Shown: in pieces, positions 8,707 through 41,066 of the stretch
Layout of the letters: the number at the start of each line of letters is the position of its first letter
Position numbering within the stretch: position 1 is the stretch's first letter
Program-made: the position numbers and the translations under genes
Origin: Anaerolineae bacterium
Lineage (GTDB): Bacteria > Chloroflexota > Anaerolineae > Anaerolineales > UBA4823
Direction of reading: 5' to 3'
Length of the DNA stretch: 64,000 nucleotides
Assembly: GCA_041301185.1 (NCBI GenBank)
Contig: JBFYSV010000202.1
Coordinates: 8,620-72,619 of the forward strand
The notes under the pieces: model-generated
What the model was told of the DNA's origin: nothing
Database searches by the model: none
The model's input: only the letters and a program-made list of their open reading frames with translations

Positions 8707-9603
8707 ATGTCCCCAGATGCAGCTCCCGTCCATATTACCGAGAAATCGACCCTTACCCCCACCATTAAAGCCTGGCGCATCTACCTCGAAGACCAGGGGA
8801 ACTCAACCCACACGGTCAAGGCTTTCACCGCTGATCTTCGATTGCTCGCATCTTACCTGCAACCAGATCGTGCCCTGGGGAGCATTACCACCACCGACTT
8901 GAATAGTTTTCTGGAGTGGATGCAGGCTGGTCGGGGCGTACCATGTAGTCCAAAGACTCTCTCCCGCCGGATCACTTCCATAAAGGCTTTTTTTCGCTGG
9001 TTACACAAAAATGGGGCTATCCTGGCAGACCCGGCGGAAAAAGTTGTTCAGAAAACCGTGATCAGCCCTCTTCCCGAAGTGCTCACCGAAGAGGAAATCC
9101 GCCTGGTAGTTGATGCAGCCGAAACTCATCGCCACGCCGCCAAGCCGGATACCCGCTACTATACATTGTTAACTCTTCTCCTGAGCACAGGCATCAAAAA
9201 AGGTGAATGCCTGGGACTGAGTCCGGCCCACATCGATCTGGATAATCCGTCCGTTGCGCTTCTTTTCATCCGCTATGCGAACCCGCAAAACCGGTACAAG
9301 GAACGAAAAATCCCCCTGACTGAGGAATGGGTCAAGTCTTATCATGAATATGACTCGCAATACCAGCTTGGCGAGCGGCTGTTCCCCTGGTCGCCTCGCC
9401 GCCTGGAATACTTGCTGGAAGATCTCAGCCAGGAAGCTGGCTTAGAGAAACACCTATCCTTTGACATGTGCCGCTGGACCTGTGCATTGGCGGATTGGAA
9501 ATCTGGGATGGAGCGCGACAAAATCCGCCAGAAATTAGGTGTCTCAAAAGTTCAATGGCGCGAAGTCAGTATGAAATTGGAAAGCCTCGCAAATAAATAT
9601 TGA
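8707..9603 (+). CDS. XerC/XerD-like tyrosine-recombinase-family protein with degenerate catalytic residues
   Basis: 298-aa ORF with an N-terminal SAM-like core-binding domain ('HTVKAFTADLRLLASYL', 'TLSRRITSIKAFFRWL') and a C-terminal integrase fold. By hand alignment, box I Arg appears as Lys (TGIKKGE) and box II reads 'FDMCRWTCA' instead of 'HxLRHxxA'. The Tyr position is Ser ('LGVSKVQWREVS'). Confidence 0.7.
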   Translation: MSPDAAPVHITEKSTLTPTIKAWRIYLEDQGNSTHTVKAFTADLRLLASYLQPDRALGSITTTDLNSFLEWMQAGRGVPCSPKTLSRRITSIKAFFRWLHKNGAILADPAEKVVQKTVISPLPEVLTEEEIRLVVDAAETHRHAAKPDTRYYTLLTLLLSTGIKKGECLGLSPAHIDLDNPSVALLFIRYANPQNRYKERKIPLTEEWVKSYHEYDSQYQLGERLFPWSPRRLEYLLEDLSQEAGLEKHLSFDMCRWTCALADWKSGMERDKIRQKLGVSKVQWREVSMKLESLANKY

Positions 9604-9626: not shown

Positions 9627-10607
9627 CTACCCACCGATTTCACTCATCGTCCGGTTGAGTGGGATCAGGCCTTCAGCCAAACCATTCCCCCACGGCTTGT
9701 TCCAAATCGCTTCCAGGATCAGCTGTCTTAGCTCAGCGAATGATGCCCCGCTTCGCAGAGGCGTCAGCACATCAACTTCTCGTTCGTGCAGCAAGCATAA
9801 CCTTAACCGCCCATCGGCGGTTAATCTTGCTCGGGTACAGGATGAGCAAAAAGGCTGGCTCACTGTAGAGATAAACCCTACCGTACCGATCGCCCCTGGG
9901 ATACGGTACATCCTCGACTCACCGTCCAGTTGCCCGCCGTTCATACATTCCAGTGGCCCAAATACTGCTTCGATGCGCTCTTGAACCTCGGACGAGGTAA
10001 CGACATTGGCTCGCTGGAATTCGGTCGCGCCACCAAAAGGCATCATCTCAATGTAACGAACTTGCCAGGCTTTTTGGAGGGTGAGCCGTGCCAAATCCAC
10101 CACATCTTTTTCGCTATAATCGCGCACCACAACCGCGTTAATTTTGATCGGCGTCAGCCCGGCTTCTTCGGCAGCTGCGATCCCATCCCATACATCTAGT
10201 AATGAACCCCAACGGGTCAGGCGGTGGAATTTTTCGTTATCCAGGGTATCCAGGCTGAAATTAACCCTGCGTAAGCCAGCCTCTGCCAGCGGTTTTGCTA
10301 ACCGGGAAAACAACACACCGTTGGAGGTCATCGTTAATGACCGGACACCAGGTATTTCTTTTATCCGGCGAACTAATTCGACAATCCCTGCCCGCACGGT
10401 AGGCTCGCCACCTGTCAGGCGGTACTTATCGAATCCCAGGCTGGCAAAAATCTTTATCAGGCTCAAGACCTCATCGTCTTGCATCAGCTCTGCATTCGGT
10501 CGGAAGGTCATCCCCTCTGGCATGCAATAGATGCAGCGCAAGTTACAATGATCGGTAAGACTGATGCGCAAATAATGGATTTGCCGACCAAAACGATCAA
10601 TCGCCAT
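9627..10607 (-). CDS. moaA: GTP 3',8-cyclase MoaA (radical SAM)
   Basis: 326-aa ORF with 'CNLRCIYC' radical-SAM cluster motif, a C-terminal second cluster 'CSSCTRARLTADGRLRLCL' and a terminal GG. Confidence 0.9.
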   Translation of the reverse strand: MAIDRFGRQIHYLRISLTDHCNLRCIYCMPEGMTFRPNAELMQDDEVLSLIKIFASLGFDKYRLTGGEPTVRAGIVELVRRIKEIPGVRSLTMTSNGVLFSRLAKPLAEAGLRRVNFSLDTLDNEKFHRLTRWGSLLDVWDGIAAAEEAGLTPIKINAVVVRDYSEKDVVDLARLTLQKAWQVRYIEMMPFGGATEFQRANVVTSSEVQERIEAVFGPLECMNGGQLDGESRMYRIPGAIGTVGFISTVSQPFCSSCTRARLTADGRLRLCLLHEREVDVLTPLRSGASFAELRQLILEAIWNKPWGNGLAEGLIPLNRTMSEIGG

Positions 10608-10850
10608 TTAACCTATAAGACCTTTCATCTGCATTGCTGAGAGACATTGGGCAATAGGCCAGCTAGGATAGGCAAAGGCCCAATAATTCTCCCGAGTTAG
10701 CAAGCACACCTGGAAACAAAATCATTATAACAAGCAGCAGCGCGAAGGGATATATTAAGTATTTCCTTAATATTGCCTGGATCTCCACAAAATGCTACTA
10801 TATTTATGCACCCAACGGATTAGGTTCAAACTGATCGGCAGGTATTCTGC

Positions 10851-11729
10851 ATGGAAGACAACCTCCAACTTACAGATTTGTCTCCAGATCCCGTGGAAGA
10901 ATGGCAGCGAATGCTGAAATTCTGCAATTTAGCCGCGGCTGAGCAACAGGCAATGGCACGCTCGGTGGAACCATTGATGAAGCGCAGCACAGAATTGGTG
11001 GTGAATACCTATGATTATCTGCGTGCAGTTCCAGAAACAGCCGCAATCCTGGGCTGGGAAGACACGGTTGATGAAGACCATCTAGAAGAACGGCGGCGTT
11101 TTTTCACCATTTGGCTGGCGCGCACGCTAGGATTGGATACATCAGATGAGTTTGCATTTTATCTGTTCCGTGCCGGTCAATACCACGCTGGGCAAGGTCC
11201 CCGAACGATACACACCCCGCCGGCGTATGTAACCATATCGATTGGTATGGTCCTGGCAAGTTTTGCCAATTACATGATAGATGCACAACTGCCTGCTGAG
11301 GTGATAGCCCTTGCCATGGCTGGTTGGAGCAAATATCTAAGCGTACAATTAAATCAGATGTCGATGGGCTACTCTATCGCCCGGGATTTTTCAAACGGTG
11401 ATTTCGCTACTCGGGTGACGTTGTTTGGGCGAATGCGACCGCTGATAGGGAAAACGGAGCTGCCTGTCCCCCTCCTTAGCGGTGCAAAAATCCATGATCT
11501 ATTGAAGAAATTCTTCGATTACTATCCTCAGTCACGGGCGGTCGTACTGGACCGCGTTTGGCAATCACACGACAAGGCTGATTCGTTATGGATTGAAGTC
11601 ATGCCGGTCTATGTCCCTCGGAAAGGCTGGCGAATTTTACACAACGGTCGCGCTCTCGGCTTTGAGAAGGGTTTCAACGAATTAGTTCGGGAGAATGATG
11701 AAGTCGCAATTTTCCCACCGGGTCGTTGA
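10851..11729 (+). CDS. Fusion protein: protoglobin-like domain plus MoaD/ThiS-like beta-grasp domain (C-terminus ...FPPGR)
   Basis: 292-aa ORF. By eye, aa ~15-175 align to the protoglobin/globin-sensor fold ('VVNTYDYLRAVPE', 'RRRFFTIWLARTL', 'AGQYHAG' with a candidate proximal His112). Residues ~186-292 resemble MoaD ('RVTLFGRMRPLIG...LVRENDEVAIFPPGR'). A candidate promoter TTGCCT-17-TACTAT lies at 10764-10792. Confidence 0.55.
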   Translation: MEDNLQLTDLSPDPVEEWQRMLKFCNLAAAEQQAMARSVEPLMKRSTELVVNTYDYLRAVPETAAILGWEDTVDEDHLEERRRFFTIWLARTLGLDTSDEFAFYLFRAGQYHAGQGPRTIHTPPAYVTISIGMVLASFANYMIDAQLPAEVIALAMAGWSKYLSVQLNQMSMGYSIARDFSNGDFATRVTLFGRMRPLIGKTELPVPLLSGAKIHDLLKKFFDYYPQSRAVVLDRVWQSHDKADSLWIEVMPVYVPRKGWRILHNGRALGFEKGFNELVRENDEVAIFPPGR

Positions 11730-11829
11730 GGTGGACCATCCACAAGAAAGGAGGTAAATAGCCCCTGTCTCGATCAACCATTGGCGGCTCAATAGATCCG
11801 AAAAACGATTAATGAATTAGGAGGCAAAT

Positions 11830-13735: not shown

Positions 13736-13993
13736 TCAACCACCGCCCCGCATTAGCTTAATCTCTAGTTTCGGCATCAGCTCTTGAAGTTTTGATTCCT
13801 CAACGCTTAGTTCCAAACGAACCCGCCCAATTACAATCGAACCGATCTTATAATCTTCTATCCTGTAAAAATCTGCCTTCCACCCAACACCTTCTACATG
13901 CTGTTTGCCTCGGAGCTCCCCACCTACCTCTATCAGGTAATCCTCTAATAGCCACAGCGGGACACCATGCACATCCCGGGTAATCTCGACCAT
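13736..13993 (-). CDS. Small conserved-looking protein of unknown function ending in ...MRGGG
   Basis: 85-aa ORF located 5 nt downstream of the MoaD-like gene on the same strand. No motif recognised except the C-terminal GGG. Confidence 0.5.
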   Translation of the reverse strand: MVEITRDVHGVPLWLLEDYLIEVGGELRGKQHVEGVGWKADFYRIEDYKIGSIVIGRVRLELSVEESKLQELMPKLEIKLMRGGG

Positions 13994-13998
13994 AGAAC

Positions 13999-14277
13999 TC
14001 AGCCCCCACCTACCGCGGGGAAGACATTAATGGTGTCTCTCGCGGTGATCTCCGTTTGCATGGCGTCTTGCAAGTAAGGTACATCTCTCCCATTTATGAG
14101 GACATGAACCCTTTCAAGAAGCTCACCATCTTCGTCCAACAATTCTTCTTTCAAACCAGGATATTCCTGGATCAACCCGTCGATCAACGAACGCACGGTG
14201 ATGGTCCCTTCCACTGGATACTCTATACTTTTCTGTCCCACGATCTGGCGCAATGTAGCATAAAAATTGATCTTCAT
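13999..14277 (-). CDS. MoaD/ThiS-family ubiquitin-like sulfur-carrier-type protein ending in ...FPAVGGG
   Basis: 92-aa ORF with the pattern 'MKINFYATLRQIVG...TVRSLIDGL...VLINGRDV...DTINVFPAVGGG', typical of the MoaD beta-grasp family. Confidence 0.75.
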   Translation of the reverse strand: MKINFYATLRQIVGQKSIEYPVEGTITVRSLIDGLIQEYPGLKEELLDEDGELLERVHVLINGRDVPYLQDAMQTEITARDTINVFPAVGGG

Positions 14278-27507: not shown

Positions 27508-27861
27508 GTGAAGCGCAGGTTTCGACTGACCCAATCAGCCGATTTCAAGCGGGTGAGGCGCCTCGGCAAGTCTTATCCTCACCCGCTCATTGTGCTGGTT
27601 GCTATGCCTAATGATATCGATCATAGCCGGTTCGCAGTTGTCGCCGGACGAGTGGCAGGTAATGCCGTGCATCGAAACCGGGCGAAAAGGATTATTCGAG
27701 CCGTGCTGAATGATCTCCTCCCAGAAGTTACCCACGGATGGGATCTTGTATTCATTGCACGCCGTCCTATGCAGACTGCCAGTTATTGGCAAGCTCATGC
27801 ATCGATCAAGCAATTATTGGGGCGCGCCCAGTTATTGGTTTCTGATAAGAGTTATGAATAA
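27508..27861 (+). CDS. rnpA: Ribonuclease P protein component
   Basis: 117-aa ORF with a GTG start, sitting in the conserved position after rpmH. Motifs '[11 protein letters not shown]' and '[12 protein letters not shown]' (RNR motif) are present. Confidence 0.85.
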
Positions 27862-28141
27862 CTCCTTCGATCAAGAATATCAATCTGAGCCATCTCTGCG
27901 CGATTTGCCTCTGACAATTCTCAACGTGCCGCGACTTCTGCTGCTCGCGCTTATTCGCCTCTACCAGATGACACTCTCGCGCGGATTGCCTCCGAACACC
28001 TGCCGCTTCTACCCATCTTGCTCCCACTATGGCTACCAGGCCATTTATAAACATGGAGTAATCAAAGGCGGTATCATGGCTGCCTGGCGGGTTATCCGCT
28101 GCAATCCATTCAACCCGGGAGGCTATGATCCCGTCCAATAG
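27854..28141 (+). CDS. yidD: Membrane protein insertion efficiency factor YidD
   Basis: The ATG at 27854 overlaps the rnpA stop. '[38 protein letters not shown]...[16 protein letters not shown]' is the YidD signature. The track ORF from 27710 is an upstream extension. Confidence 0.85.
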
Positions 28142-28223
28142 CAACCCTGGTCTATGAGCTAAAACAAAACTGGTGACATGGCTGGCGTTCATCATGCCTG
28201 GGTAAATAGAATTAGACAAAAAC

Positions 28224-29300
28224 ATGAAATTAAAAACAGCTTCCATATTGCTCTTCTTTACGATCGCATCCATAACCCTTGCGGGTTGTACTGGAGCAAC
28301 CAACGCCGCGTCGAGCTGGCCCGGGTTGAACGCAGACCAGGAACATGCATACGTTGCATTCAATCAGTTCGTTTATGCAATCAATCTCAGCAATGGTCTT
28401 GAAAAATGGCGTTTTCCGATCGAAGCGGATAACAAAGTCTCGTTTTACGCAACCCCTGAACTGAGCCAGGATGGCCAGTTACTGGTGGGTGATTACAGCA
28501 ATAAGCTGCACAGCCTGAATCCTGCCACTGGAACTGAGAACTGGCTCTTCGATGACGCGACAGACCGGTATATCAGTGGAGCGCTGGCCTTTAATGACCG
28601 CATCTATGCTGCCAATAATGGGCATCAACTTTACGCGCTTGATCCATCCGGAAATCTCTTGTGGGAGTTTGAAACGGAAGGTCCATTGTGGGCCAAACCG
28701 ACCACCGATGAACGCTGCGATTGCATCTATTTGCCATCGATGGATCACCACATGTATGCGGTGGTCGCTGAAACCGGCGAGTTAAAATGGCAGTCTGAGT
28801 CACTTGGCGGGTCTATTGTCGGGAACCCCACAATGAATGAAGCAGGGAGGATATTCTTCGGCACGTTTGGTAGTGAAATATTGGCTTTAGACTCCCAAAC
28901 GGGCGCTTCTGTCTGGCGGACGCCAACTTCAGAGTGGGTATGGGGCGGACCGCAGCTCTACCAGGATCAATTATTCGTAGGCGATCTGGGGGGAACATTT
29001 TATGCCCTGGATTCTAATACCGGCACGATTGAGTGGCAAAAACAATTGGACGGGAGCATTACAGCCTCCCCCTTGGTCACGGATGACGCCATTTATATCC
29101 CTACAGAAAATGGCATTTTATACGCTCTTGATCTCAATGGCAACAATCTGTGGAACAAGCAATTTGAAACCAAACTGCATACAACCCCTGTCATCTCCGG
29201 TGATCTAATCCTGGTTGCCGCCAACGGAGGCGATGAGCTACTCTACGCATTGGAGACAAATGGAAATCAAAAATGGGTATTTATCCCAGAGAAGAAATAG
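28224..29300 (+). CDS. PQQ-like (BamB-type) beta-propeller repeat lipoprotein
   Basis: 358-aa ORF with a signal peptide and lipobox 'LAGC'. It has repeated 'G.L.ALD..TG...W' blades (e.g. 'LHSLNPATGTENW','MYAVVAETGELKW','ILALDSQTGASVW','FYALDSNTGTIEW'). Confidence 0.75.
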   Translation: MKLKTASILLFFTIASITLAGCTGATNAASSWPGLNADQEHAYVAFNQFVYAINLSNGLEKWRFPIEADNKVSFYATPELSQDGQLLVGDYSNKLHSLNPATGTENWLFDDATDRYISGALAFNDRIYAANNGHQLYALDPSGNLLWEFETEGPLWAKPTTDERCDCIYLPSMDHHMYAVVAETGELKWQSESLGGSIVGNPTMNEAGRIFFGTFGSEILALDSQTGASVWRTPTSEWVWGGPQLYQDQLFVGDLGGTFYALDSNTGTIEWQKQLDGSITASPLVTDDAIYIPTENGILYALDLNGNNLWNKQFETKLHTTPVISGDLILVAANGGDELLYALETNGNQKWVFIPEKK

Positions 29301-29313
29301 GCGGACCTAACCT

Positions 29314-30096
29314 ATGTGGGATTTACTGATTATCAATCCAATGGTTAATACCCTGTTGGGGATCTACGCGGTCCTTAGCCGGGTGTTTGGACCAGAGAAT
29401 ATGTTCGGTCTGGCTATCATTTTCTTTACAATCCTCATCCGCCTGATCACTTATCCGCTTACCATACAGCAGATGAAGGGCGCTCAGGGTATGCAGGAGA
29501 TGCAAAAATCAAAGAAATGGCAGGAAATCCAGAAGAAGTACAAGGACAATCGGGAAAAGCTGGCTCAAGAGCAGATGGCGCTTTACAAAGAAATGGGGAT
29601 TAGCCCATTTAGCTCCTGCCTACCAACCTTAATCCAATTCCCGATTATCATCGGACTTTACCAGGCTATCATCCGATGTCTAGCAGTAACACCTGTCCAG
29701 CTGCTCGATCTATCCAAGCATATCTATCCGTTCATCGATGGCGCTGCTCTGATCCCCTTGAACAATCAATTCCTGTGGATGAATCTAAGCCAACCTGAGC
29801 GCTTGTACATATTCGGCATCGGCATTCCAGTGCTGGCAATCATCGTGGTGATTACCACCTACATGCAATCCAAGCTGATGACCCCGCCTGCTCAACCCGG
29901 CGAACAGGGAGCCCAGATTTCTCAGGCGATGAACCTGTATATGCCTTTCTTAATGGGCTGGCTGGCATATTCATTCTCTTCTGGTCTCTCCCTATATTTT
30001 GTGACCAGCAACGTCGTAGGCATCTTACAATACGCCGCCATGGGAAAAGTAAATTGGCGCAACCTGATCCCTTCGCTGCCGAAAAGAACTCGCTAA
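29314..30096 (+). CDS. yidC: Membrane protein insertase YidC (short, monoderm type)
   Basis: 260-aa ORF with 'GLAIIFFTILIRLITYPLT..Q', 'MQEMQ', 'LYKE.GISP..SCLPTLIQFPI' and 'MPFLMGW' motifs. It lacks a large periplasmic P1 domain. Confidence 0.85.
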   Translation: MWDLLIINPMVNTLLGIYAVLSRVFGPENMFGLAIIFFTILIRLITYPLTIQQMKGAQGMQEMQKSKKWQEIQKKYKDNREKLAQEQMALYKEMGISPFSSCLPTLIQFPIIIGLYQAIIRCLAVTPVQLLDLSKHIYPFIDGAALIPLNNQFLWMNLSQPERLYIFGIGIPVLAIIVVITTYMQSKLMTPPAQPGEQGAQISQAMNLYMPFLMGWLAYSFSSGLSLYFVTSNVVGILQYAAMGKVNWRNLIPSLPKRTR

Positions 30097-30131
30097 TGGG
30101 TATGTGAATCCGCAATTATTACGAGGCAGAT

Positions 30132-30920
30132 ATGGAAAATCGAGCTACATTAGAGGTAATTGCTCCTACAATTGAAGAAGCTATCGCGAAAGGCATCGAT
30201 GAGCTAGGTGTACCGGAGGAAGCAGTTGATATCGAAATTCTTGACCCGGGTAGCAAGGGTTTATTCGGGATCGGCTCCCGTCAAGCCAGGGTACGGCTGG
30301 TCGTAAAATCCGATTCTCAACCCGGAGGGGTGACTGATAAGGCACCTGTAACTTGGATAAGCCAACAACCAAGCGTCTCTGCAGAAGCAATGCCTGCAAC
30401 CTTAGAGGAGAGTGCTACCAGCGACTATTCCGGGCAGACAGCAGACAAAGAAGATATCACCCTGTACGTTGCCAGAGAAACCGTGGTCGAGCTTCTGGAG
30501 AAAATGAAAGTCCGGGCAACAGTAAAAGCATACTATGGTGAACCAGACGAAGCCCAGAGCCGCGCCCCGGTATGTGTTGATATCAATGGCAAGGATCTCA
30601 GTATCCTGATCGGCAGACAATCCGAGACGCTTAATGCCCTGCAATATATATCCAGCCTGATTGCAAGTAAAGAACTTGGTCACTCAATACCCCTGGTAGT
30701 TGACGTCGAAGGGTATCGCAAAAGACGACAGCAGCAAATCCGCTATCTGGCTCGGCGAATGGCAGAGCAAGCCGTGAAGACCGGTCGGCGGCAGATTTTA
30801 GAACCTATGCCCGCAAACGAGCGGCGGATCGTGCATATTGAGCTGCGTGATAATCAGTCTGTAACCACCGAAAGTGTTGGTGAAGAGCCTCGGCGTAAAG
30901 TGACCGTAATACCAAAATAA
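30132..30920 (+). CDS. jag: Jag/KhpB RNA-binding protein (Jag_N + KH + R3H)
   Basis: 262-aa ORF in the conserved position after yidC. It has an N-terminal 'TIEEAIAKGIDELGV' and the C-terminal R3H motif 'LEPMPANERRIVHIEL'. Confidence 0.85.
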   Translation: MENRATLEVIAPTIEEAIAKGIDELGVPEEAVDIEILDPGSKGLFGIGSRQARVRLVVKSDSQPGGVTDKAPVTWISQQPSVSAEAMPATLEESATSDYSGQTADKEDITLYVARETVVELLEKMKVRATVKAYYGEPDEAQSRAPVCVDINGKDLSILIGRQSETLNALQYISSLIASKELGHSIPLVVDVEGYRKRRQQQIRYLARRMAEQAVKTGRRQILEPMPANERRIVHIELRDNQSVTTESVGEEPRRKVTVIPK

Positions 30921-30958
30921 GTCATTCTTCGGCTTCGATTTTTCTAAAGTGTAATCAA

Positions 30959-30988
30959 CCCCGTCAATTGCTTACTGACGGGGTTTTC
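30959..30988 (+). terminator. Rho-independent terminator after jag
   Basis: CCCCGTCA (30959-30966), 9-nt loop, TGACGGGG (30976-30983), then TTTT. Confidence 0.65.
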
Positions 30989-31032
30989 CTATGCTTCGTC
31001 ATCCGGGTGGACTCTTCGTGTATAATTCAAGT

Positions 31033-31881
31033 ATGCGCCAGATCACTCCACTTGAGCCAGTTGATTATTTAGTCCTCGGGCACATCACCATCGATCAAAC
31101 GCCACAAGGACCGCGCCTCGGCGGTGGGGTTACATATTCCGCCCTTACAGCCCGAGCGTTAGGTCTGCGAGTTGGCATTGTAACTTCCTGGGGGCAAGAA
31201 ATTCCTCTTGGACTCCTGAGCGATATACCTATCATTAACTATCCTAGCGAAACCAGCACCACTTTCGAGAATATCTCCAAAGGCAATACTCGAGAGCAAT
31301 ATATCCACTCCACCGCATCCAGCCTTTACCTGAACACGATCCCTGACCCGTGGCGTAGCGCCCCAATCGTTCATCTGGCTCCTGTCGCTCAGGAAGTAGA
31401 TCCTTCATTAGTGCGTAATTTTCCCACGGCGTTGATTGCCGTTACCCCCCAGGGCTGGTTGCGCACCTGGGATAGAGCAAAGGTAGTTCAATCAACCGAA
31501 TGGCCTGAGGCATCCTTCGTGTTGCAAAGAGCAGGCGCAGCGGTTATCAGCATCAATGATGTTGATAACGACGAGACCCGAATTGAAGAAATGGCAACTG
31601 CCTGCCGCGTTTTAGCTGTAACCGAGGGTGCCAGGGGAACCCGCCTCTATTGGAATGGAGATATCCGCCGCTTTCGCCCGCCAGAGGTCAATGAGATCGA
31701 TAGCGTTGGCGCAGGTGATATTTTTGCGGCGGCATTTTTCGTTCGCCTATACACAACCCGCGATCCCTGGGAATCCGCCAGGTTTGCTACTCTTTTATCT
31801 GCATATTCCGTTACACGATCCGGCCTGGAGAGCATCCCCACCAGTGAGGAGATCCAGGAGTCCTTGGTTGAGGTATTTTAA
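31033..31881 (+). CDS. PfkB-family carbohydrate kinase
   Basis: The ORF is open from 30991, but that ATG abuts the terminator. The ATG at 31033 (MRQITPLEP) is more plausible. 'GGGVTYSA' and the C-terminal 'DSVGAGDIFAAAF' motif match the PfkB family. Confidence 0.7.
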   Translation: MRQITPLEPVDYLVLGHITIDQTPQGPRLGGGVTYSALTARALGLRVGIVTSWGQEIPLGLLSDIPIINYPSETSTTFENISKGNTREQYIHSTASSLYLNTIPDPWRSAPIVHLAPVAQEVDPSLVRNFPTALIAVTPQGWLRTWDRAKVVQSTEWPEASFVLQRAGAAVISINDVDNDETRIEEMATACRVLAVTEGARGTRLYWNGDIRRFRPPEVNEIDSVGAGDIFAAAFFVRLYTTRDPWESARFATLLSAYSVTRSGLESIPTSEEIQESLVEVF

Positions 31882-31884
31882 CGA

Positions 31885-32676
31885 ATGGGGTATGTCTATA
31901 CGCTAGTCAACCAAAAAGGCGGGGTGGGGAAGACCACCACCGCCATCAACCTGGGTGCGTACCTGGCGTATTATGGACAGCGGGTTCTGATCGTTGACCT
32001 CGATCCTCAGGCAAACGCCACCTCCAGCTTGAAAATCGACAAAAATACGGTTCGTGGCGGCACATACGAGGCGCTCATTCGATCCTCTACTCTCAGCCAT
32101 CATATTCTGCATAACCCGCGCTTGAAGCTATCCCTGCTCCCCTCCTCCCCTGCCCTGGCAGGTGCTGAAGTTGAATTGGTGAATGAACTTGCCAGGGAGA
32201 CCCGCTTGAAGAAAGCTCTCGATCCAATCCTGGATCGCTATGATTATATTCTTATCGATTGCCCGCCATCACTTGGCTTATTGACTCTGAATGGGATTGT
32301 TGCTGCCCTGGATGGCGTCATTATCCCGGTTCAGTGTGAATACCTGGCGCTCGAGGGATTGAGCCAGCTCACCCAAACCTTAAATCGCGTCCGGTCTGCA
32401 ATCTTTCCAGCTCTGAAGGTCTTTGGGGTGGTTTTAACCATGTATGACGGGAGGACAAATTTGGCGAATGATGTGGTTAGCGAGGTCCGGCGCTATTTCT
32501 CCGACCGGGTATTCCAAAGTCTGATTCCCCGCAGTGTTCGCCTGGCTGAAGCACCCTCCTATGGACAACCGATCACTGTATACGCGCCACAATCGAGCGG
32601 TGCAGAAGCCTATGCTGCCCTTGCCAGGGAAGTTCTGGAATTAAACGGTGTCCGTATCCCCACACTACAGGCTTAA
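31885..32676 (+). CDS. parA: Chromosome partitioning ATPase ParA/Soj
   Basis: 263-aa ORF with deviant Walker A 'NQKGGVGKTTT', 'DLDPQANAT' and 'ILIDCPPSLG'. Confidence 0.9.
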   Translation: MGYVYTLVNQKGGVGKTTTAINLGAYLAYYGQRVLIVDLDPQANATSSLKIDKNTVRGGTYEALIRSSTLSHHILHNPRLKLSLLPSSPALAGAEVELVNELARETRLKKALDPILDRYDYILIDCPPSLGLLTLNGIVAALDGVIIPVQCEYLALEGLSQLTQTLNRVRSAIFPALKVFGVVLTMYDGRTNLANDVVSEVRRYFSDRVFQSLIPRSVRLAEAPSYGQPITVYAPQSSGAEAYAALAREVLELNGVRIPTLQA

Positions 32677-32682
32677 CTTACT

Positions 32683-33540
32683 ATGACCCGAAAAACTGGA
32701 CTTGGGCGAGGCTTAGATGCTCTGATCCCCGGGGGCGAACCACCCTCCACGGGTGTTATTGAAATACCAGTAAATCTGATCACTCCAAACCCGAGACAGC
32801 CACGCAGTCGCTTCGACGCCGAGGAATTATCTGAGCTGGCTGACTCCATAAAAGAGCACGGTGTCCTTCAACCGATCATCGTATCTTTTGATGAACATGA
32901 CTCCCAATATGTGCTGATTGCCGGTGAAAGGCGCTGGATGGCAGCTCGACAAGCCGGTCTGGAATCGATTCCATCCATAGTGCGCGAAGTCAACGATCAG
33001 CAGCGCGTCGAGCTGGCTTTGATCGAGAACGTCCAACGTTCCGATCTCAGCCCCCTGGAAGCGGCCGAAGCATATCACCAGTTAAGTGAAGAGTTTGCAC
33101 TGTCTCATGATCAAATTTCTACAAGAGTAGGGAAAAGCCGCACCACGATTACCAACACTCTCCGGCTCTTAAAACTCCCAATAGATGTAAAAACCGCCCT
33201 GGCCGAAGACCGGATTAGCGAAGGGCATGCCAGGGCGTTGCTGTCCTTGAACAATCCACAGGCCCAGACCGCAGCCTTGCAGACCATCCTGGCAAAAGAC
33301 CTGACAGTGCGCCAGACGGAACAACTGGTACGAAAGCTGAGTGGAGAGAAGCCGGCACCGGTTCCCAAACCGACGGCTGCGCCAGAAATTTTATCCCTGG
33401 AAGAACAATTGCGCTCGCGGTTGGGTACAAAAGTGAAAGTCAACCCCCGCAAAAAGGGCGGCTCAATTGTTATTCATTATTTTTCAACCGAAGAGCTCAA
33501 TTCATTGCTGGACCTCCTCCTCGGAAATTCACAAGACTGA
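32683..33540 (+). CDS. parB: Chromosome partitioning protein ParB/Spo0J
   Basis: 285-aa ORF with 'GLGRGLDALI', 'NPRQPR', 'GVLQPIIV', 'LIAGERRWMAA' and HTH 'SHDQISTRVGKSRTTITNTLRLLKLP'. Confidence 0.9.
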   Translation: MTRKTGLGRGLDALIPGGEPPSTGVIEIPVNLITPNPRQPRSRFDAEELSELADSIKEHGVLQPIIVSFDEHDSQYVLIAGERRWMAARQAGLESIPSIVREVNDQQRVELALIENVQRSDLSPLEAAEAYHQLSEEFALSHDQISTRVGKSRTTITNTLRLLKLPIDVKTALAEDRISEGHARALLSLNNPQAQTAALQTILAKDLTVRQTEQLVRKLSGEKPAPVPKPTAAPEILSLEEQLRSRLGTKVKVNPRKKGGSIVIHYFSTEELNSLLDLLLGNSQD

Positions 33541-39105: not shown

Positions 39106-41007
39106 CTATCTCAATCGGCGGTTATCCCCTTCCCGAATTGTAATGCCACGTGAATCCAGGTATTCCAAGAATGCCAGCACATAACGCCGGCTGGTATTGT
39201 AGTAATCTCGTAGCTGGGCGGCGGTAATTGTGCCAGTTTCCTGAATAATCCGCATTACATCCACCAGCATCTTTTCATAGCCATCTCTACTAAAAACCAC
39301 CTCAGCAGAAACCTGTACCAGCTTGCCACTCTCAACCAATGCCTGGTACACATCCCCTCCTACTGCTGCCTGGCATTCTTTGACTGTTGGTGGTCCATAA
39401 GGATTCTCATTAAACTTGGTAAACAAATCGTCAGTCAAGCGCTGCTGCTGGTTGTTTAATCGAATCTCAAATCCTGTTTCACAGACAAGGGGGCCGACTT
39501 CCTGAATTGAACCGCTGGATGCCAGCTTACCCATCATCCCATTGAAAACGCGCGTTGAAACCTTCAACCGGCTTTTTAGCTCCTCGCGCGGCATGCCCTG
39601 ACGCAATGGATAAAGCTTGTGATATTGCTGAATTTCCCGAATTGCTTTTGTGGAGAGCTGGTTCCAGTACAGCTGGCTTGTCACCAGAGCATCCATTGCG
39701 GGTCTAGTGTTTTCTAACGTCTTCCCTTCAATTGAAACCAACAACCCATTTTCATATAACTCACCTATCAGCAGCTGAGCGTTAGTAGCTTCAAGATTTG
39801 ATCGTGAGACAACCTCTCTGAGCGGCGCGACGCCGAGTGCAGCCAAGGCTTGAAGAAATACGTCTGCTGGAGTGCCTTTTTCTAATGCTTCCAATCGCTC
39901 GACAGTCTGACGGGAAAATCGCTTATGCCTGCCTTTCGGATGGGGATCAAGTACTTCCCCTCCGCCGAGTGTTTCGCCAGGGGATGGTCGGCGAATAATG
40001 AACCGGTCACCGCGCATGGCGACAACCGGGTGGCTTACCTCCATCTGCACCCATCCATTCTCTCCGGGTTTCAACTCCTCTTTTCCAAGCAGGCGCAAGC
40101 GAGCCACCACCTCCGCAGATCCAATAAACAACTTAATGCTGGTATTGTGCCTGAGGACGGAGCTTGCACCCGTCAGAAGGCGCAATCGGGCGTCCAGCCT
40201 CCCGGTAGGCTGGTAATCCTTTGGATGGGCGATCACATCGCCGCGCATGATCTCATCAACATTGACACCGGAGATGTTGACCGCAGTCCGAGAACCAGGC
40301 ACAGCTATCTCTTCTTTTCGTTTGTGGGTTTGCAGGCCGCGGACCCTTCCCCGGATTGTCTGAGGTAACACAACAAGCTCGTCGCCTGCGTGCAAAGCTC
40401 CATCGCTTAGCGTACCCGTCACAACCGTCCCAAATCCCGGGATGGTAAAAACACGATCCACCGGCAGACGCGGGCGTCCGTAATCCACTCTTGGGGGGCG
40501 TTCTGCCAGGCACTTAACGATTTCGCTTAATAAATCGTCAATCCCTATCCGCTTACGGCCAGAGACACGCACAATTGGGGCATTTTCCATAACGGTGCCG
40601 ATTAATTGCTGGCGCACATCTTCCTCGATCAGATCCAGCCACTCGGCATCCTGAACCATGTCAATTTTGGTCAGCGCAACGACACCTCCCTGAATCTGGA
40701 GCAGGTCCAAGATCGCCAGGTGTTCACGGGTTTGAGGCATCACCCCTTCGTCTGCCGCAATAACGAACAGTGCTGCATCAATGCCTCCAATACCTGAGAG
40801 CATGTTTTCGATAAAGTCACGGTGCCCCGGCACATCGATAATACCGATTTCCTCCCCGTCTGGAAGGGTCATCCACGCAAAGCCCAGGTCGATTGTCATT
40901 TCCCGCTCGCGTTCTTCTTTTAAGCGATCGGGGTGATAGCCGGTAAGCGCCTCAACCAGGGTTGATTTACCGTGGTCGACGTGCCCGGCAGTCCCAATTA
41001 CCCGCAT
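39106..41007 (-). CDS. selB: Selenocysteine-specific translation elongation factor SelB
   Basis: The ATG at 41007 has a GGAGGA RBS; the track ORF begins 15 nt upstream at a TTG. N-terminus 'MRVIGTAGHVDHGKSTL', plus 'DVPGH' and 'TKID' GTPase motifs. The ~630-aa length and C-terminal winged-helix-like extension are typical of bacterial SelB. Confidence 0.85.
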   Translation of the reverse strand: MRVIGTAGHVDHGKSTLVEALTGYHPDRLKEEREREMTIDLGFAWMTLPDGEEIGIIDVPGHRDFIENMLSGIGGIDAALFVIAADEGVMPQTREHLAILDLLQIQGGVVALTKIDMVQDAEWLDLIEEDVRQQLIGTVMENAPIVRVSGRKRIGIDDLLSEIVKCLAERPPRVDYGRPRLPVDRVFTIPGFGTVVTGTLSDGALHAGDELVVLPQTIRGRVRGLQTHKRKEEIAVPGSRTAVNISGVNVDEIMRGDVIAHPKDYQPTGRLDARLRLLTGASSVLRHNTSIKLFIGSAEVVARLRLLGKEELKPGENGWVQMEVSHPVVAMRGDRFIIRRPSPGETLGGGEVLDPHPKGRHKRFSRQTVERLEALEKGTPADVFLQALAALGVAPLREVVSRSNLEATNAQLLIGELYENGLLVSIEGKTLENTRPAMDALVTSQLYWNQLSTKAIREIQQYHKLYPLRQGMPREELKSRLKVSTRVFNGMMGKLASSGSIQEVGPLVCETGFEIRLNNQQQRLTDDLFTKFNENPYGPPTVKECQAAVGGDVYQALVESGKLVQVSAEVVFSRDGYEKMLVDVMRIIQETGTITAAQLRDYYNTSRRYVLAFLEYLDSRGITIREGDNRRLR

Positions 41008-41066
41008 CCAATTCCTCCACAAAAGCTACCTATACTATGCTTATGTTGTTGAGGGTACTCCACATC

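Follow-up and report, generated by a model that had tools for sequence, protein, structure and literature searches.

The window analyzed here is a 64,000-nucleotide (64-kb) stretch of contig JBFYSV010000202.1 from an Anaerolineae bacterium of the phylum Chloroflexota (GenBank assembly GCA_041301185.1, positions 8,620 to 72,619, forward strand). Our subject is a gene in it whose product joins an N-terminal sensor globin to a C-terminal MoaD-like beta-grasp domain (table 1). The fusion gene lies between moaA, which is divergent from it across a gap of 243 nt, and aor, a member of the aldehyde:ferredoxin oxidoreductase (AOR) family that starts exactly 100 nt past the fusion stop codon. This arrangement, described in an initial annotation of the sequence, was found again in the open reading frame (ORF) list and in the Pfam and NCBIfam matches. 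A terminator scan found no plus-strand terminator in the spacer between fusion and aor, and the two genes are probably co-transcribed. Downstream of aor and convergent with it are two short genes, one for a DUF1952 protein and one for a bona fide MoaD/SAMP1-type sulfur carrier ending in Gly-Gly (GG-MoaD). No gene for MoaE, MoeB, MoeA, or a JAMM protease was found in the 64-kb window, no JAMM or E1 gene at the fusion locus, and no MoaE, MoeB, or MoeA was called in four related loci (L001-L004; L and P numbers are our labels for loci and divergent lineages). The remainder of the window holds housekeeping genes.

Table 1. Features of the fusion locus, in window coordinates (aa, amino acids)
Feature	Position	Strand	Basis
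moaA (GTP 3',8-cyclase)	9627..10607	-	TIGR02666, 355.8 bits (cut-off 284)
Perfect palindrome ATATTAAG-N6-CTTAATAT, candidate operator	10752..10773	.	78-99 nt upstream of the fusion start codon
Protoglobin-MoaD-like fusion gene	10851..11729	+	ATG start, TGA stop, 292 aa plus stop (ORF list, Pfam)
N-terminal sensor-globin (protoglobin) domain, aa 1-181	10851..11393	+	PF11563, Foldseek, helix map
Tyr54 codon, predicted distal Tyr B10	11010..11012	+	Opposite MaPgb Tyr61 and FYDYL of GsGCS; invariant in both phyla
E-helix core R81-R82-R83-F84-F85, Arg at E7 and Phe at E11	11091..11105	+	Profile alignment to MaPgb
His112 codon in 'RAGQYHAG', predicted proximal heme ligand position F8	11184..11186	+	Aligned with four solved sensor globins/protoglobins
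C-terminal MoaD/SAMP-type beta-grasp domain, aa 183-292	11397..11726	+	PF02597, PDB profiles, hhalign
Pro-Pro-Gly-Arg tail, in place of PP-V-S/G-G-G	11715..11726	+	Conservation, hhalign
Spacer from fusion to aor	11730..11829	+	100 nt, AGGAGG ribosome-binding site
aor, AOR family, 608 aa	11830..13656	+	AFOR_N and AFOR_C Pfam matches
DUF1952/'MoaD_arch' protein, 85 aa, ends RGGG	13736..13993	-	PF09189, E=1.3e-5
MoaD/SAMP1-type sulfur carrier, 92 aa, ends VGGG	13999..14277	-	ThiS, E=2.5e-13; NCBIfam SAMP1, 87.5 bits (cut-off 60)

The N-terminal domain matches the Pfam Protoglobin model PF11563 over aa 16-174 (E=1.2e-9, 38.8 bits against a cut-off of 25), and the Thermus ortholog described below scores 41 bits against the same model. 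An AlphaFold2 model built with a 60-sequence alignment (predicted local distance difference test, pLDDT, 94.6; predicted template modeling score, pTM, 0.90) has eight helices (aa 14-181) in a 3-on-3 globin fold with an N-terminal pre-A extension, followed by the beta-grasp domain. The high pTM points to a fixed arrangement of the two domains. When the model was compared with the PDB by Foldseek, each domain was matched separately and no solved chain spanned both. The globin domain gave template modeling (TM) scores of 0.85 to the Thermosynechococcus elongatus protoglobin domain (8h17) and to AfGcHK (5ohe), 0.83 to GsGCS (2w31), and 0.75 to MaPgb, the protoglobin of Methanosarcina acetivorans (2veb), and scores between 0.75 and 0.85 to the globin domains of AfGcHK, GsGCS, BpeGReg, HemAT, and DosC, all of which are heme-based sensors.

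Residues of the heme pocket could be placed by profile alignment. The segment 'TYDYL..PETA' of the fusion aligns with 'FYDYL..PETA' of solved sensor globins, and G-x-x-His112 aligns with 'IGHAH', 'VGEIH', and 'IGLVH' of the sensor globins GsGCS (2w31), Vibrio RsbR-globin (7o0i), and Tlr1989 (8h17), at proximal position F8. Against MaPgb, in a sequence that agrees with eight residue numbers, six of them named in PDB mutant titles, the pairs were Thr53/Trp60 (B9), Tyr54/Tyr61 (B10), Arg81/Val89 (E7), Phe85/Phe93 (E11), and His112/His120 (F8). The Trp B9 and apolar E7 specific to protoglobins are thus replaced by Thr53 and an invariant Arg81, so the domain is a divergent branch and not a typical protoglobin. 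Forty-one positions of the fusion are invariant across Anaerolineae, intermediate lineages, and Thermus, those in the globin domain including Tyr54, Arg81, Arg82, Phe84, Phe85, Trp88, His112, Gly116-Pro117, and a 'TA..LGWE' segment. His112 is kept in 120 of 120 close homologs and in the Thermus clade; His77 and His121 are invariant inside the Anaerolineae, not family-wide. Judged by these alignments, the domain is a globin of the sensor lineage with an intact heme-pocket signature, and we infer that the fusion protein binds heme. The initial annotation had proposed a protoglobin/globin-coupled-sensor fold with the histidine of 'RAGQYHAG' as proximal ligand, and both proposals held: the Pfam match is above its cut-off, the predicted structure and fold search agree with it, and the histidine falls on F8 of GsGCS, Vibrio RsbR-globin, Tlr1989, and MaPgb and is conserved among homologs.

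The match of the C-terminal domain to Pfam ThiS (PF02597, aa 189-290) is marginal (E=1.1e-4, 23.1 bits against a cut-off of 22.5), and its scores against the NCBIfam models SAMP1 and moaD_arch fall short of their cut-offs. The assignment holds because it is backed by profile searches of the PDB (SAMP3/HVO_2177, 2m19, E=1e-9; SAMP1, 2l52, E=3e-9; also 1v8c and 1vjk), by hhalign comparison with the GG-MoaD of the same locus (97.3%, E=2e-11), and by Foldseek, which gave TM scores of 0.72-0.83 to SAMP1 and MoaD and also matched 1v8c and Urm1. Only ThiS, MoaD, and SAMP models matched this domain, and no recognized transmitter domain of globin-coupled sensors did. It differs from the adjacent GG-MoaD by a 17-residue Trp-rich hairpin insertion at about aa 236-258 (hhalign; strands 233-240 and 249-256 in the model), and the two are 17-20% identical, which together rule out a recent duplication of the adjacent gene.

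Selection on the end of this domain is strong. Trp247, Trp260, and the terminal Pro-Pro-Gly-Arg (PPGR) are invariant across both phyla, and PPGR closes 118 of the 120 close homologs as well as the Thermus, P0137, P0122, P0125, and P0126 lineages. Alignment by hhalign sets FPP-GR against FPA-VGGG, making the fusion tail two residues shorter than that of the GG-MoaD, and the last two residues alone are modeled with less confidence (pLDDT 69). The fusion, ending in FPPGR, therefore lacks the C-terminal Gly-Gly of sulfur carriers, in which 119 of the 120 close homologs and the Thermus clade agree with it, and its locus does not pair it with MoaE or with an E1-like MoeB, ThiF, or UbaA. From its sequence, the degenerate MoaD domain is predicted to be neither adenylatable nor thiocarboxylatable, and hence not a sulfur carrier. 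Since the tail is strictly conserved yet chemically dead, the best reading of it is that of a putative contact element. The MoaD-like nature of residues 186-292 and their ending in Gly-Arg instead of Gly-Gly had both been noted in the initial annotation, and the searches and homologs described above agree with it on each.

A search of 5.8 billion clustered proteins (E<=1e-3) returned 836 homolog clusters, the best 120 of which are all about 292 aa long, covered over their full length, and 58-93% identical to the query; the window protein itself is present, exact, in public collections. The few named members go under 'protoglobin domain-containing protein' or 'MoaD/ThiS family protein', and in JGI annotation under 'molybdopterin converting factor small subunit'. 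When 1.84 billion representatives at 50% identity were searched with the family profile, just 280 matches came back, about eight of them full-length; the lower matches were ordinary protoglobin-like proteins with one domain (about 185 aa) and MoaD/SAMP proteins with a GG end (about 95 aa). Since the few full-length representatives are followed by ordinary single-domain proteins, the fusion family is compact and well separated. The fusion is encoded by 211 GTDB genomes, counted one per species, and nearly all of the 80 listed belong to the class Anaerolineae within the Chloroflexota (Anaerolineales, Ardenticatenales, Promineifilaceae, and Thermoflexales). When plasmid records were searched by tblastn, full-length orthologs about 34% identical to the fusion were added from 15 Thermus megaplasmids, where their annotation reads 'protoglobin domain-containing protein'. 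An assembly or frameshift artifact is ruled out by the same architecture in the 836 clusters, the 211 species genomes, and the 15 complete Thermus plasmid records, and the question of whether the fusion recurs in related genomes or is unique to one assembly is thereby settled in favor of recurrence. The architecture is visible in automatic annotation; in the literature searched we found no paper describing the fusion or joining a protoglobin with MoaD, and a chimeric sensor globin with a ubiquitin-like (Ubl) C-terminal domain is unprecedented there.

Gene context was counted in 80 species loci. The aor gene lies directly downstream of the fusion in 52 of these, directly upstream on the same strand in 8, and within 1.4-4.1 kb in 3; a further 9 loci are cut by a contig end, and 8 have full flanks and no AOR. 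An AOR is thus found near the fusion, within about 4 kb and in two gene orders, in 63 of the 71 evaluable loci (89%), which bears out the recurring aor linkage looked for after the initial annotation. Direct adjacency to an AOR gene, the hallmark of AOR-linked MoaD clusters, is seen for the fusion in 60 of the 71. The pair of fusion then AOR is kept in three metagenomic contigs whose remaining neighbors differ. Where an AOR locus left room to check (n=52), a convergent GG-MoaD was seen in 45 and DUF1952 in 42, with 41 loci having both. The linkage of MoaD genes to AOR is a published theme, in which the proposed role of such genes is to produce the molybdopterin of the tungsten cofactor, globins going unmentioned (PMC1779556, PMC2948915).

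The window AOR has as its nearest solved structure the tungsten-dependent WOR83 of Haloferax volcanii (9q1t, 718 bits), the Pyrococcus furiosus AOR (1aor) scoring only 478, and with AORs on other haloarchaeal megaplasmids it shares 53-56% identity. These matches suggest a separate subfamily of AOR, present in more than one domain of life, in organisms exposed to oxygen. No fusion neighbor was present in the single haloarchaeal locus of this subfamily that we examined. The window DUF1952 protein finds its match in the C-terminal domain of 1v8c, the 'MoaD related protein' of Thermus. Both end RGGG, and with the GG-MoaD gene upstream of it the window protein reads as a split version of that fused protein. 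Across related loci the DUF1952 endings are RGGG, RAGG, or RAGA, and this diglycine-like ending is on a non-Ubl domain.

Significance had also been implied for the moaA neighborhood, and this was overstated: moaA adjoins the fusion in just 2 of the 80 species loci (L033 and L012, the latter the same contig as metagenome locus L001) and is rejected as a conserved partner. In the window a tyrosine-recombinase (XerC/D-like integrase) gene (8707-9603, plus strand) adjoins moaA, and L001 (70% identity) keeps the order integrase, moaA, fusion, aor, so that the moaA linkage is a trait of this sublineage only.

The 8 AOR-less Chloroflexota loci with full flanks have no single alternative partner in common; their neighbors vary by locus and include a cupin, a short-chain dehydrogenase/reductase, HflX, a YeeE-type sulfur transporter, a hydrogenase, a membrane protein with a His-x-His motif, and DrpA. 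Four loci (L090, L013, L042, and L049) have only membrane protein, Usp, or cupin neighbors and no pterin enzyme. In two AOR-less loci labeled Chloroflexaceae a YeeE/YedE-type 'sulphur transport' membrane protein is encoded upstream of the fusion, directly preceding it in L068 (3691-4926) and about 1.9 kb away in L070 (5857-6756), where the call rests on a similar N-terminus alone.

A second context was found in Thermus. In T. thermophilus JL-18, SG0.5JP17-16, and HB5018 the fusion ortholog lies inside the nitrate-respiration element, in the order narGHJI, a major facilitator superfamily transporter (narK), drpA, drpB, a 144-aa membrane protein, the fusion, a protein of 383 aa in which about nine segments are hydrophobic and transmembrane-like, and a DUF59 Fe-S assembly protein. 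Thermus orthologs of the fusion are recorded as WP_014630619 and WP_014511187 (locus tags THTHE16_RS11160 and TTJL18_RS11615). Here drpA encodes DUF2249 and drpB encodes DUF1858, DUF2249, and TusA-like domains. In these three strains the genes from drpA to the fusion are on the same strand, with junctions that overlap or span 2 nt. Experiments have shown that DrpA and DrpB regulate nar expression (PMC6282519), and drpAB is there called bicistronic, the globin gene never being mentioned (Chahlafi et al. 2018). In NAR1, the model strain used in that work (plasmid 4; L088 3725-4570), a transposase right after drpB separates it from the genes for the 144-aa protein and the fusion, and the published bicistronic drpAB may be what truncation has left of a longer operon in that strain. 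Together the YeeE/YedE genes and the TusA-like domains of DrpB give a weak hint of a connection to sulfur relay.

The small membrane protein (144-153 aa) has no Pfam family, and its 'SHVHAG...GVAYWMMPRPG' segment is conserved between loci (L086 8546-8980; L090 3728-4189); the Thermus copy, with its 'SHVHAG' motif, gives a weak COX1 match below cut-off. A homolog 61% identical to it overlaps the fusion gene start in the deep-branching lineage P0137, and others stand immediately upstream of the fusion in the AOR-less loci L013, L042, and L049 or about 2 kb off in L054 and L081. By gene neighborhood this protein is a putative second partner of the fusion conserved across phyla. A DrpA homolog (DUF2249) precedes the fusion in Chloroflexota locus L070, and no drp or DUF2249 gene is present in the window. 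In a neighbor-joining tree without support values, the Chloroflexota copies that lack an AOR fall within the AOR-linked group, and the deepest branches are those of Thermus and P0137. Two ancient paralogs serving AOR and non-AOR contexts are therefore not supported, this tree without support values being the basis, and the pattern looks like one protein family with a switched genomic partner. Since Thermus and several Chloroflexota loci pair the fusion with the His-x-His protein or with DrpA/DrpB, it is not AOR-specific, and partner switching speaks against a role confined to AOR or to the synthesis of pterin cofactors.

In the intergenic DNA before the fusion, the candidate operator palindrome overlaps a promoter-like -10 hexamer; promoter-like matches in the flanking intergenic DNA were not above chance. 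Its core, TTAAG-N6-CTTAA, occurs once in the 64-kb window, where 0.07 occurrences would be expected. Across 1.19 Mb of related loci there is one further exact copy, in L001/L012, at the same position (-100) relative to the fusion gene, and versions with one mismatch occur in L009/L010 (-60) and L033 (-250). No molybdenum or tungsten cofactor riboswitch or other Rfam RNA was found in the flanking intergenic regions at gathering thresholds or E<=1, and no tRNA or Rfam family was detected across the full 64 kb. Elsewhere in the window, 27710-33540 and 39106-41022 hold a yidD-yidC-jag...parA-parB cluster typical of origin-proximal regions together with selB, the gene of the selenocysteine elongation factor.

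The reading that we favor, at a probability of about 0.4, is that the fusion protein is a heme-based accessory protein responsive to O2, NO, or redox state, in which the degenerate MoaD domain is a docking module and not a sulfur carrier. It would be a soluble heme protein with two domains, belonging to the sensor (S) globin lineage, and its output, neither enzyme nor DNA-binding domain, would be a MoaD/SAMP-type ubiquitin-like domain. Heme held by His112, in a distal pocket lined by Tyr54, Arg81, and Phe85, would bind O2 or NO or shift its redox state; because the two domains pack rigidly, this change could alter the docking of the beta-grasp domain and its exposed PPGR tail onto a partner encoded next door. 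In the window genome and most Anaerolineae this partner would be the tungsten-type AOR or the GG-MoaD/DUF1952 maturation pair, the fusion tuning or protecting an oxygen-sensitive enzyme according to O2, NO, or redox status. In Thermus and some Chloroflexota the same module might be plugged into the small His-x-His membrane protein and the DrpA/DrpB of the nitrate-respiration island. We favor a sensing accessory because the known proteins of this globin lineage that carry a C-terminal domain sense gases or redox state through heme and because DrpA and DrpB are regulators.

Several results support this reading. His F8, Tyr B10, and Phe E11 are aligned and invariant over two phyla; the conserved PPGR end, shorter than a Gly-Gly tail and accompanied by a genuine GG-MoaD at the same locus, speaks for a beta-grasp that is no carrier. 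Linkage to a partner is supported by AOR adjacency in two gene orders while other neighbors differ and by the Thermus gene abutting the drpA-drpB series, and an accessory is favored over a core subunit by the haloarchaeal locus without the fusion and by the 8 of 71 Chloroflexota loci without AOR. The initial annotation had suggested a gas- or redox-sensing accessory or chaperone linking O2 or redox state to AOR activity or pterin-cofactor insertion; on family precedent and gene context the sensing accessory remains the best reading, and the restriction to AOR- or pterin-specific maturation is weakened by the unconserved moaA and by the AOR-less loci of Thermus, an intermediate lineage, and several Chloroflexota.

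Other observations pull the opposite way. The C-terminal domain is not a known signaling output. Identity is 58-65% across the whole class; sensors are usually less conserved, and such a level would be in keeping, too, with a redox partner or an obligate subunit of an enzyme. The conserved partners are in both cases redox proteins (AOR and the His-x-His membrane protein), and electron exchange fits them as well as sensing does. Heme binding itself is deduced from sequence only, and one divergent lineage (P0131; L091 1250-2176) has Tyr at F8 ('GRKYAGDGP') and a product that ends 'LAIY' and lacks the PPGR tail; this lineage may represent a side branch that is non-heme or Tyr-ligated.

The same partners invite the main rival explanation, redox or ligand handling, which we regard as possible, if rather unlikely. 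The heme would take electrons from its neighbor (the [4Fe-4S] cluster of AOR, or the Thermus His-x-His protein) and reduce or dioxygenate O2 or NO, and the protein would act as a split flavohemoglobin-like scavenger that guards oxygen- or NO-sensitive centers while its beta-grasp docks onto the electron donor. Besides the redox character of both neighbors, the Thermus context, a denitrification island where NO arises, beside a DUF59 Fe-S assembly gene, is what such a scavenger would lead one to expect. So are the unusually high sequence conservation and rigid two-domain packing, the invariant distal Arg E7, which could stabilize bound O2 or anions, and an AOR subfamily closest to the enzyme of the aerobe H. 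volcanii. However, the fusion has no reductase or flavin domain, to our knowledge there is no precedent for an AOR donating electrons to a globin, and the one same-subfamily haloarchaeal locus examined does without it; a scavenger would also leave unexplained the need for a MoaD-type fold with a strictly conserved tail. Another alternative is a maturation factor for pterin cofactors, the core of the earlier idea, in which a non-activatable MoaD mimic, as decoy or chaperone, binds molybdopterin synthase, an E1-like enzyme, or apo-AOR and makes tungsten- or molybdenum-cofactor synthesis or insertion dependent on heme status. The proposal that AOR-linked MoaD genes make tungsten cofactor (Iyer et al. 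2006, PMC1779556) would accommodate such a mimic, as would the GG-MoaD, DUF1952, and, in the window, moaA at the locus, and the Thermus neighbor that is a molybdenum bis-molybdopterin guanine dinucleotide enzyme, with TusA-like domains in DrpB. Against this, moaA is adjacent in only 2 of 80 loci, the window has no MoaE, MoeB, or MoeA, four loci (L090, L013, L042, and L049) carry the fusion without a pterin enzyme, and a tail two residues shorter would presumably not reach a MoaE- or MoeB-type pocket as a Gly-Gly tail does. Because the pterin link is not universal, we consider a heme-gated decoy MoaD improbable.

A globin fold without heme is a further alternative. One lineage lacks His F8, non-heme sensor globins exist, and 7o0i_B, an anti-anti-sigma factor of the Vibrio stressosome, is among the weak matches, so the N-terminal domain might be a scaffold like that of RsbR, acting as a structural subunit only or holding another ligand. 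This is very unlikely in view of His F8, Tyr B10, and Phe E11, which are invariant over orthologs about 34% identical, as expected of heme binders, and of closest structures that are all heme proteins. Least probable by far is a genuine sulfur carrier or conjugatable MoaD/SAMP freed by C-terminal processing. Some Ubl proteins are matured by JAMM proteases, and the JGI automatic name points this way, but with the terminal Arg removed, Pro-Pro would be followed by one Gly and not by Gly-Gly; moreover, the tail is conserved as PPGR, a true GG-MoaD stands alongside, and JAMM and E1 genes are missing from the locus.

A wider synthesis, which we put forward as doubtful, would make the fusion a new class of heme protein, in which a protoglobin is permanently joined to a MoaD Ubl that cannot be conjugated, portable between anaerobic redox machines as an O2/NO-responsive plug-in that docks onto them through its beta-grasp and PPGR and either gates them or exchanges electrons with them. 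These machines would be the tungsten AOR in Anaerolineae and, in Thermus, a four-transmembrane His-x-His membrane protein resembling heme-copper oxidases together with the Drp regulators. Sensor globins are known to signal through kinases, cyclases, chemotaxis domains, or STAS domains, and a rigidly fused Ubl-type MoaD that has lost its chemistry and kept an invariant tail would give a heme sensor a new route to its target. If the wider synthesis is true, it would be the first Ubl-type output of such a sensor. Tungsten AORs are oxygen-sensitive and of biotechnological interest for the reduction of acids to aldehydes. The subfamily of the window AOR is common in activated-sludge and subsurface Anaerolineae that face oxic/anoxic swings, and a dedicated O2/NO-responsive accessory could explain how their AOR works despite these. 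On the same condition the orthologs right behind DrpA/DrpB would be candidates for the missing O2/NO input of the Thermus nitrate-respiration switch, and they may fill a gap in its regulatory model. Since they sit in the nitrate-respiration element of a genetically tractable host, T. thermophilus, the sensor hypothesis can be tested by simple knock-outs.

Among known systems, the AOR-linked MoaD proteins and archaeal SAMP1 and SAMP3 (2L52, 3PO0, 2M19; Iyer et al. 2006, Makarova & Koonin 2010) share with the fusion the beta-grasp, an 'NGR(D)...D-x-(I/V)-x-(I/F)-PP' motif, and linkage to AOR; unlike them, it has no Gly-Gly, ends in Arg two residues earlier, carries a Trp-rich insertion, and sits behind a globin. 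The T. thermophilus protein 1V8C (MoaD plus DUF1952) and the Azoarcus AOR-MoaD fusion mentioned in the AOR-linked MoaD literature (PMC1779556, PMC2948915) likewise tether a MoaD-type domain permanently to another domain in an AOR-related context. Their partner domains and domain order differ from those of the fusion, however, 1V8C ends in GGG, and the window has MoaD and DUF1952 as separate genes. The published drp locus of Thermus (Chahlafi et al. 2018) is treated as bicistronic with no mention of the globin gene, from which a transposase separates it in NAR1, and the window has no drp/DUF2249 genes; the likeness lies in the Thermus ortholog two genes downstream of drpB and in the DrpA homolog before the fusion in one Chloroflexota locus.

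The globin half is closest to protoglobins (MaPgb, 2VEB; the T. elongatus Tlr1989 globin, 8H17; Aeropyrum pernix ApPgb), with which it shares the 3-on-3 fold, the N-terminal extension, His F8, Tyr B10, and Phe E11. A protoglobin consists of one domain of about 195 aa, whereas the fusion has Thr53 at B9, Arg81 at E7, a shorter FG loop with its own invariant Gly-Pro, and a beta-grasp rigidly fused to its C-terminus. Globin-coupled sensors (HemAT-Bs, AfGcHK, EcDosC, BpeGReg, GsGCS, and Vibrio RsbR) end in methyl-accepting chemotaxis, GGDEF, histidine-kinase, STAS, or membrane domains, a MoaD/ThiS-type output not being among those known in the literature searched. In overall plan the fusion resembles them, with an N-terminal sensor globin followed by a C-terminal domain; they are its best structural matches after the protoglobins (TM 0.75-0.85), and it has the FYDYL...PETA and G-x-x-H motifs in common with them.

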